A stretch of DNA of 64,000 nt from NCBI RefSeq assembly GCF_988242995.1, contig NZ_OZ547043.1; one strand, given 5' to 3'. The first letter of the stretch is position 1; the number at the start of each line of letters is the position of its first letter. The position numbers and the translations under genes are program-made. Below the pieces are notes generated by a model, which saw only the letters and a program-made list of their open reading frames with translations, had not been told where the DNA came from and ran no database searches. This document shows positions 2,409 to 2,625 of this stretch, piece by piece.

Positions 2409-2625
2409 ACCCGGTGGTGATGTACCAGGCTGTTGTTACAGATTTTTAACTCCATGAAAACACTATGCAAACGCAGCCATACCCGGGTTGTCCCCTTGCG
2501 TTGTGTTTCTCAAGTTAATAGAATACATCGATCGTTACTATCATATCGATCGTTATAAACGATCATTTGTAGTAAATGACCTCCTCCGTGGTTGTCATGA
2601 AAATGCGTCTTAGGAAGGTTAAATA

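Follow-up and report, generated by a model that had tools for sequence, protein, structure and literature searches.

A candidate agn43-type Dam/OxyR switch upstream of a dynamin/RdcB-like/patatin operon in Escherichia coli

The spacer and the operon downstream of it

The window analyzed here, that is, the whole stretch of 64,000 nucleotides, carries an island that adjoins yeeA and sbmC, the chromosomal position occupied by prophage CP4-44 in K-12. The genes on either side of the spacer under study are as follows.

1536-2408, plus strand: YeeP-like GTPase family gene (S88 RefSeq annotation; Pfam MMR_HSR1)
2409-2625, plus strand: intergenic spacer of 217 bp, holding the predicted promoter and operator and a 96-nt leader
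2626-5022, plus strand: dynamin-family GTPase of 798 aa, an RdcA/CrfC paralogue (Pfam Dynamin_N)
5019-5924, plus strand: YjcZ/RdcB-family protein (Pfam YjcZ, E=4e-70; 31% identity to K-12 RdcB)
5921-6991, plus strand: patatin-like phospholipase (Pfam Patatin, E=3e-27)

The stop of the upstream GTPase gene is at 2408 and the ATG of the dynamin gene at 2626. In islands of the CP4-44 type, the YeeP-like gene is conserved and anchors the cargo slot on its upstream side. The gene 3' of the spacer had been described as a dynamin gene before any database search, and the Pfam Dynamin_N match (E=8.4e-18) confirmed this. Its product showed 46% identity to K-12 RdcA/CrfC over the GTPase half, and the NCBIfam CrfC model gave 558 bits, under its cut-off of 1146. 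The first two genes of the operon are thus paralogues of K-12 rdcA-rdcB (yjdA-yjcZ), whose products activate the diguanylate cyclase DgcE (PMC6510439). In contrast to the operon studied here, the core rdcAB of K-12 comes without a patatin gene and lies outside the island slot. All close homologues of the dynamin protein were from E. coli. A search with PADLOC v2 returned no system match for the operon, only weak partial hits to LeoBC (2.7e-5) and to a phospholipase effector (1e-4).

The window was 100% identical to S88 and other extraintestinal E. coli strains at 2300-2800, and its first 14.8 kb had 2 differences from E. coli S88. One, G to A at 7615 (codon 7613-7615, TGG to TGA), truncates a secreted hypothetical protein of 227 aa with a CKAHTC motif and a weak match to the lysozyme inhibitor Ivy (E=0.048, below the Pfam cut-off). 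The other, also G to A, is at 11336 in the cbtA toxin region.

Within the spacer, the following features were located or predicted.

2496-2501, plus strand: -35-like hexamer TTGCGT, 17 nt 5' of the -10 hexamer, placed by homology
2519-2524, plus strand: -10 hexamer TAGAAT, aligning to the K-12 agn43 promoter
2527-2537, plus strand: direct repeat, copy 1, ATCGATCGTTA
2527-2541, plus strand: predicted OxyR half-site 1, ATCGATCGTTACTAT, 8/10 against ATAGnTnnnAnCTAT
2530, plus strand: predicted transcription start, the G of GATC-I, placed from the K-12 IsrC annotation
2530-2533: GATC-I, Dam target
2545-2555, plus strand: direct repeat, copy 2, ATCGATCGTTA, offset 18 nt from copy 1
2548-2551: GATC-II, Dam target
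2548-2564: inverted repeat GATCGTT-ATA-AACGATC, the dyad of half-site 2, terminator-like in a simple scan
2549-2563, plus strand: predicted OxyR half-site 2, ATCGTTATAAACGAT, 8/10, with a perfect dyad ATCG-N7-CGAT
2558-2566: inverted partner of the direct repeat, AACGATCAT
2561-2564: GATC-III, Dam target, 13 nt from GATC-II
2565-2625, plus strand: rest of the leader

A preliminary description of this DNA had interpreted the direct repeat and its inverted partner as the binding site of a dimeric regulator. When the sequence was re-read, the spacer, the direct repeat and the inverted partner were all found in place. The palindrome ATCGAT, which had been ascribed to each unit, was present in both direct copies and absent from the third unit. 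The 11-mer had also been offered as a motif to be sought elsewhere. Allowing at most one mismatch, the 64 kb contained the two ATCGATCGTTA copies only, but this bare count is not significant, as at least two matches at one mismatch occurred in 34/100 window shuffles. The count in the window being uninformative, it was replaced by tests of adjacency, of the GATC triple and of the OxyR score. In a 217-nt first-order Markov sequence, the probability of an exact direct repeat of 11 nt or more at an offset of at most 30 was about 0.002.

GATC is the methylation target of Dam. It is found in all three repeat units, a feature that the first reading of the sequence had passed over. The arrangement GATC-N14-GATC-N9-GATC occurred once in the 64-kb window and in 0/100 shuffles. 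Just one other GATC triple within 40 nt was found in the window, at 27649-27666 in coding sequence (by position, the hisB frame). It has no OxyR-like context and is probably due to chance.

The operator and its counterpart at agn43

[quoted passage not shown] We scored the OxyR consensus ATAGnTnnnAnCTAT-N7-ATAGnTnnnAnCTAT, as quoted in PMC2909390, along the whole window. The candidate site at 2527-2563, which encloses all three GATCs, reached 16/20 (8+8). This was the sole top score in the 64 kb, the next being 14, and a score of 16 was reached by 1/5000 spacer shuffles. In the same frame, the experimentally characterized site of K-12 agn43 scored 14/20 (6+8). The first half-site begins at 2527 and the second at 2549, a distance of 22 nt, equal to two helical turns. 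The regulator is predicted to read these half-sites rather than the 18-nt repeat described earlier, and the "inverted partner" becomes the right-hand arm of the half-site 2 dyad. The 18-nt direct repeat itself reflects a duplication of ATCG (ATCGATCG) at each of the two places.

The surroundings of this site resemble those of agn43. In K-12 the gene order is yeeP-spacer-flu (agn43), and in the window it is yeeP-like-spacer-dynamin-YjcZ/RdcB-family-patatin, so that both spacers occupy the slot after a yeeP-like GTPase gene in a CP4-44-type island. Identity to K-12 was 96% at the 3' end of yeeP, 31% in the 5' part of the spacer, 73-77% across the -10 box and operator (2506-2566) and 44% in the leader. 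All three GATCs of agn43 aligned with GATCs of the window, with one base fewer between GATC-I and GATC-II. Both homology and synteny with the agn43 regulatory region were thus found. The spacing from GATC-II to GATC-III is identical, the -10 box TAGAAT is homologous, and a single OxyR site (predicted here) lies just 3' of the -10 box and holds the three GATCs.

We then compared nine sequences in one alignment: K-12 flu, an 88%-diverged agn43 allele, two alleles of Ag43/Cah, two dynamin-type spacers besides that of the window, and sequences from Citrobacter and Yersinia. The invariant stretches were TnATAGAAT (9/9 sequences), which contains the -10 hexamer, GATCGTT, which contains GATC-II, and CGATC, which contains GATC-III, while the flanks had diverged. 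GATC-I was conserved in the agn43, cah, Citrobacter and Yersinia versions. The -35 region is weak, with CTTG kept in all E. coli types of the alignment. The Citrobacter and Yersinia sequences were found by a pattern that required the invariant bases and are therefore not independent evidence. It is the agn43 and cah alleles that count, since they were chosen without reference to the operator, the two Ag43/Cah alleles having been found via leader and coding sequence.

Several differences from agn43 were also seen. The cargo here is the dynamin/RdcB-like/patatin operon, not an autotransporter adhesin. GATC-I and GATC-II are 18 nt apart, in contrast to 19 nt in every agn43/cah allele examined, and this 1-nt shift of GATC-I accounts for the better half-site 1 (8/10 versus 6/10 in agn43). 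The exact 11-nt direct repeat ATCGATCGTTA is peculiar to the dynamin-type spacer in the nine-way alignment. Finally, the flu leader has an intrinsic terminator, which yields IsrC (annotated in K-12 as the terminated flu leader), and the 96-nt leader here lacks it. The 5' end of K-12 IsrC is the G of the homologous GATC, and by homology transcription of the dynamin operon would start near 2530. The predicted tetramer site would then overlap both the promoter and the start, the latter being positioned from IsrC.

In the agn43 switch, the unmethylated site is occupied by OxyR, which represses transcription and keeps Dam off the GATCs; once the GATCs are methylated, OxyR can no longer bind. The two compete after each replication, so that both states are inherited, and switching occurs at a rate of about 10^-3 per generation (PMC3764049, PMC4872104, PMC13337833, PMC13076061). 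We consider it probable that the repeats serve as the operator of an epigenetic phase-variation switch of the agn43 Dam/OxyR type, placed before the dynamin operon. This reading is based on sequence features, on homology and synteny with agn43 and on conservation; OxyR binding, methylation sensitivity and ON/OFF inheritance at the dynamin locus are carried over from the agn43 experiments. According to this model, a sigma-70 promoter (TTGCGT-17-TAGAAT) would start transcription at about 2530, and the single OxyR site at 2527-2563 would span roughly -4 to +34 and contain the three GATCs. When these are unmethylated, OxyR would bind and block transcription of the dynamin/RdcB-like/patatin genes, and bound OxyR would shield the GATCs from Dam, giving a heritable OFF state. 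If Dam methylated the sites after replication before OxyR rebound, OxyR would no longer bind and the ON state would be inherited. With both states heritable, a clonal population would be a mixture of ON and OFF cells.

The defining feature of the operator is probably its three GATCs, which at agn43 make repression a heritable, reversible switch (PMC3764049, PMC4872104, PMC13337833). The earlier proposal of a repressor operator agrees with this model insofar as the site overlaps the dynamin promoter, as placed by homology, but the regulator is probably OxyR acting as a dimer of dimers and not a dedicated dimeric protein. The suggestion that the operon is kept repressed also fits, because by homology with agn43 the operator probably keeps the operon silent in many cells. 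The publications that we consulted on ST131, O111 and single-molecule methylomes contain no listing of unmethylated sites.

Other systems controlled by OxyR and Dam were also compared. The Salmonella gtr operators likewise have a GATC pair 13 nt apart inside an OxyR half-site (gtr positions from PMC2909390). In gtr (P22, LT2) and opvAB, OxyR cannot bind once the sites are methylated, and the ON or OFF state of expression is inherited (PMC2909390, PMC4856963). These systems differ from the present site in having three or four half-sites 5' of the promoter, with alternative OxyR positions that activate or repress. Here a single tetramer site lies over the predicted transcription start, as at agn43, and repression only is therefore predicted. 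To our knowledge, Dam-dependent epigenetic switches in enterobacteria are few, the main ones being the pap family, agn43, gtr and opvAB. A 2026 review cites agn43 and gtr only as OxyR/Dam switches.

A further resemblance was noticed upstream of com/mom in a Mu-like prophage of strain 06-00048 (L009, 3497-3535), where a 17-nt core, TATCGATCGTTATAAAC, is identical to the window operator; by BLAST alone this match is not significant (E=0.2). We know of no work that has established phase variation of mom. In phage Mu, mom is under Dam and OxyR control (PMC2909390), and the site differs from ours in lying 5' of the promoter of a phage DNA-modification operon.

Distribution, natural variants and alternative readings

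The dynamin-type spacer was present in 1985/5426 complete E. coli genomes (37%), and at a coverage of at least 80% in 1983/5426. A genome may hold as many as three copies, and ST131, O104:H4, O145, O103 and Nissle 1917 are among the carriers. The K-12-type agn43 regulatory region was found in 1832 genomes, so the dynamin-type spacer is about as common. The exact 46-nt operator core was present in 1404 records. In a metagenome scan anchored on the flanks, with the operator left free, 39 of the 40 contigs kept all three GATCs, across 13 operator haplotypes. Among dynamin-type spacers, 2/12 GATC positions varied compared with 11/35 other operator positions, a difference that is not significant and underpowered. 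The variable operator positions were mostly those that the OxyR consensus leaves unspecified, in numbers too small for significance. Variation in the dynamin-type spacer is too low for selection on the GATCs to be provable.

Single variants of the GATCs were seen twice. In a poultry strain whose island is degraded (L010, 3501-3546), GATC-I reads TATC, and in the one remaining metagenome contig it is GATC-III that reads TATC. In addition, a precise 18-nt deletion, equal to one repeat period, was found in 5/5426 genomes, including 50EVA and NCTC9699 (L011, 3383-3581). It leaves two GATCs and one OxyR half-site (12/20) and amounts to a natural repeat-deletion mutant.

A second arrangement, in the order yeeP-like, switch, cah/Ag43, 110-nt spacer, dynamin, RdcB-like and patatin, was found in 635/5426 genomes. 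It includes typical O157:H7; examples are NZRM4169 (L057, 482-9039) and O157:H7 TR01 (L056). In the 110 nt between cah and the dynamin gene, a simple scan detected nothing resembling a promoter or a terminator, and for this reason the dynamin operon is probably co-switched with Cah, as far as the sequence indicates. A derivation of the dynamin-type spacer from the O157 arrangement through simple loss of cah was also considered and found unsupported: TR01, from which the idea came, is a recombinant, and the typical O157 cah-dynamin spacer has a different 3' end. Likewise, an apparent third cargo on one contig (L006) turned out to be a rare rearrangement present in 8 genomes.

These observations bear on a different reading, in which the block is an inherited relic of the agn43/cah region, acquired through rearrangement of the cargo slot, with no phase variation and with an operon that is constitutive, silent or driven from elsewhere. 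Positions 2381-2582 indeed align to the cah-type upstream region, to which the spacer is most similar, and the operon directly follows cah/Ag43 in the 635 genomes mentioned above. Dynamin-type spacers are also very uniform (94-100% identity), so that retention could reflect recent spread, and decayed variants exist in the form of the GATC-I loss, the GATC-III loss in one contig and the 18-nt deletion. However, such variants are rare (1/40 contigs and 5/5426 genomes), and the -10 box and the operator are intact, with an OxyR match better than that of agn43. Moreover, a simple scan found no promoter-like site in the spacer besides the one overlapping the operator, and where cah intervenes no signal separates it from the dynamin gene, so the switch would drive the operon there too. 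On balance we regard a relic as unlikely.

The switch core was also found outside E. coli. In Citrobacter braakii (L004), C. amalonaticus and Enterobacter wuhouensis, the same -10 box and three-GATC operator stand after a YeeP-like gene and precede two small proteins with signal peptides (154 and 157 aa; no Pfam match), which are candidates for another phase-variable cargo. In Yersinia similis (L005, 5499-5544), this same core, with the 14-nt gap between GATC-I and GATC-II seen in the window, lies between Gabija-like genes with an Ail/OmpX-like outer-membrane gene and the island backbone, with no clear downstream cargo.

The recurrence of the dyad (T/C)GATCG-N7-CGATC(A/G) in same-family islands of several genera, and the direct-plus-inverted geometry of the repeats, would suit a dedicated dimeric repressor encoded by the island or the operon that reads the ATCGATCGTTA repeats with no role for Dam, since a regulator encoded by the island backbone could read the dyad. 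We think this very improbable, because the homologous agn43 site is bound by host OxyR in a methylation-sensitive manner (PMC3764049, PMC13337833). In addition, K-12, cah and Citrobacter keep only the GATCs and the OxyR-frame positions and not the 11-mer, and the 18-nt offset does not match the two conserved half-sites 22 nt apart. An RNA element, with the hairpin at 2548-2564 serving as an attenuator, a terminator or a 5' stabilizer, is in our view less probable still: a simple, lenient scan calls the 7-bp stem followed by ATTTGTAGTA terminator-like and the folding of the leader is slightly more stable than that of shuffled sequences (z=-2.0), but the stem has only 3 G-C pairs and a poor T-run (ATTTGTAGTA), the symmetry of the OxyR half-site better explains the dyad, which is kept as DNA dyads with differing loops, and no Rfam family matches in the spacer. 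As a separate observation on the leader, CCTCCTCC/CCUCCUCC (2580-2587) pairs with the Shine-Dalgarno sequence AGGAAGG (2612-2618) in the minimum-energy fold; the signal is weak (the same z=-2.0), and such a pairing could mask the ribosome-binding site. The leader is invariant at 2572-2610 across haplotypes, which leaves no covariation to score.

Possible roles of the operon and significance of the switch

What is new here is what the switch controls and how common it is; the agn43-type switch itself is already well understood. In a full-text literature search that covered few papers from subscription journals, we found no work tying the dynamin/RdcB-like/patatin operon to OxyR, Dam or phase variation, and its genes appear in two papers that merely list genes within islands. 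We next asked whether the switch travels with the operon or with the slot. Outside E. coli, metagenome/SRA contigs (L058, L061, L064) retain the dynamin-YjcZ-patatin trio with about 40% identity. No GATC cluster or switch was found at the operons of about 40% identity outside Enterobacterales, and none was found in the 400 nt upstream of a 67%-identical dynamin homologue. With homologues at both levels of identity lacking it, the switch goes with the island slot, not with the operon. The comparison shows the agn43-type switch to be a portable cassette of promoter and operator tied to a single island slot. Its cargoes are autotransporter adhesins, the two small secreted proteins of Citrobacter and Enterobacter, and the dynamin/RdcB-like/patatin operon.

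As to what the operon does, anti-phage defence, membrane remodelling and an input into c-di-GMP signalling are all speculation at this stage. We tentatively propose, as a possibility, that it is a costly membrane-active module (for anti-phage defence or abortive infection, or for a DgcE/c-di-GMP input into biofilm formation) placed under agn43-type epigenetic bet-hedging. The genes that neighbour the trio at about 40% identity are in keeping with this proposal. They comprise a WYL regulator with a MazE/PIN toxin-antitoxin pair, a nuclease of the PLD family together with a second dynamin gene, and a helicase of the NERD/UvrD type, and these neighbourhoods resemble defence islands.

If the proposal is true, roughly one in three E. 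coli, among them ST131, O104:H4, Nissle 1917 and S88, would carry an unrecognized phase-variable trait, and islands of the O157 type may co-switch the module with the adhesin Cah. The candidate switch predicts a phase-variable phenotype that is common and unstudied. Clone-to-clone transcriptomic or phenotypic differences at the operon may come down to which cells, ON or OFF, were sampled, an effect documented at agn43 (PMC3764049). Strains locked ON or locked OFF would provide a direct handle on the function of the operon.

A last comparison came from Budvicia aquatica. There a dynamin-YjcZ-patatin operon of 39% identity sits on a same-family island with YeeP-like GTPase, AlpA and YfjJ-like genes. 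Three GATCG-N7-CGATC dyads were found there (L062, 3812-3856 and 7361-7409), compared with 0.01 expected. Of these, one follows the yeeP-like gene and the other two are about 600 nt upstream of the operon, so this operon has GATC dyads of its own upstream, which also favours the proposal of a membrane-active module under epigenetic control. The finding is suggestive, independent evidence that Dam-sensitive dyads and the dynamin operon go together in Enterobacterales. The Budvicia operon is preceded by a small zinc-ribbon ORF.
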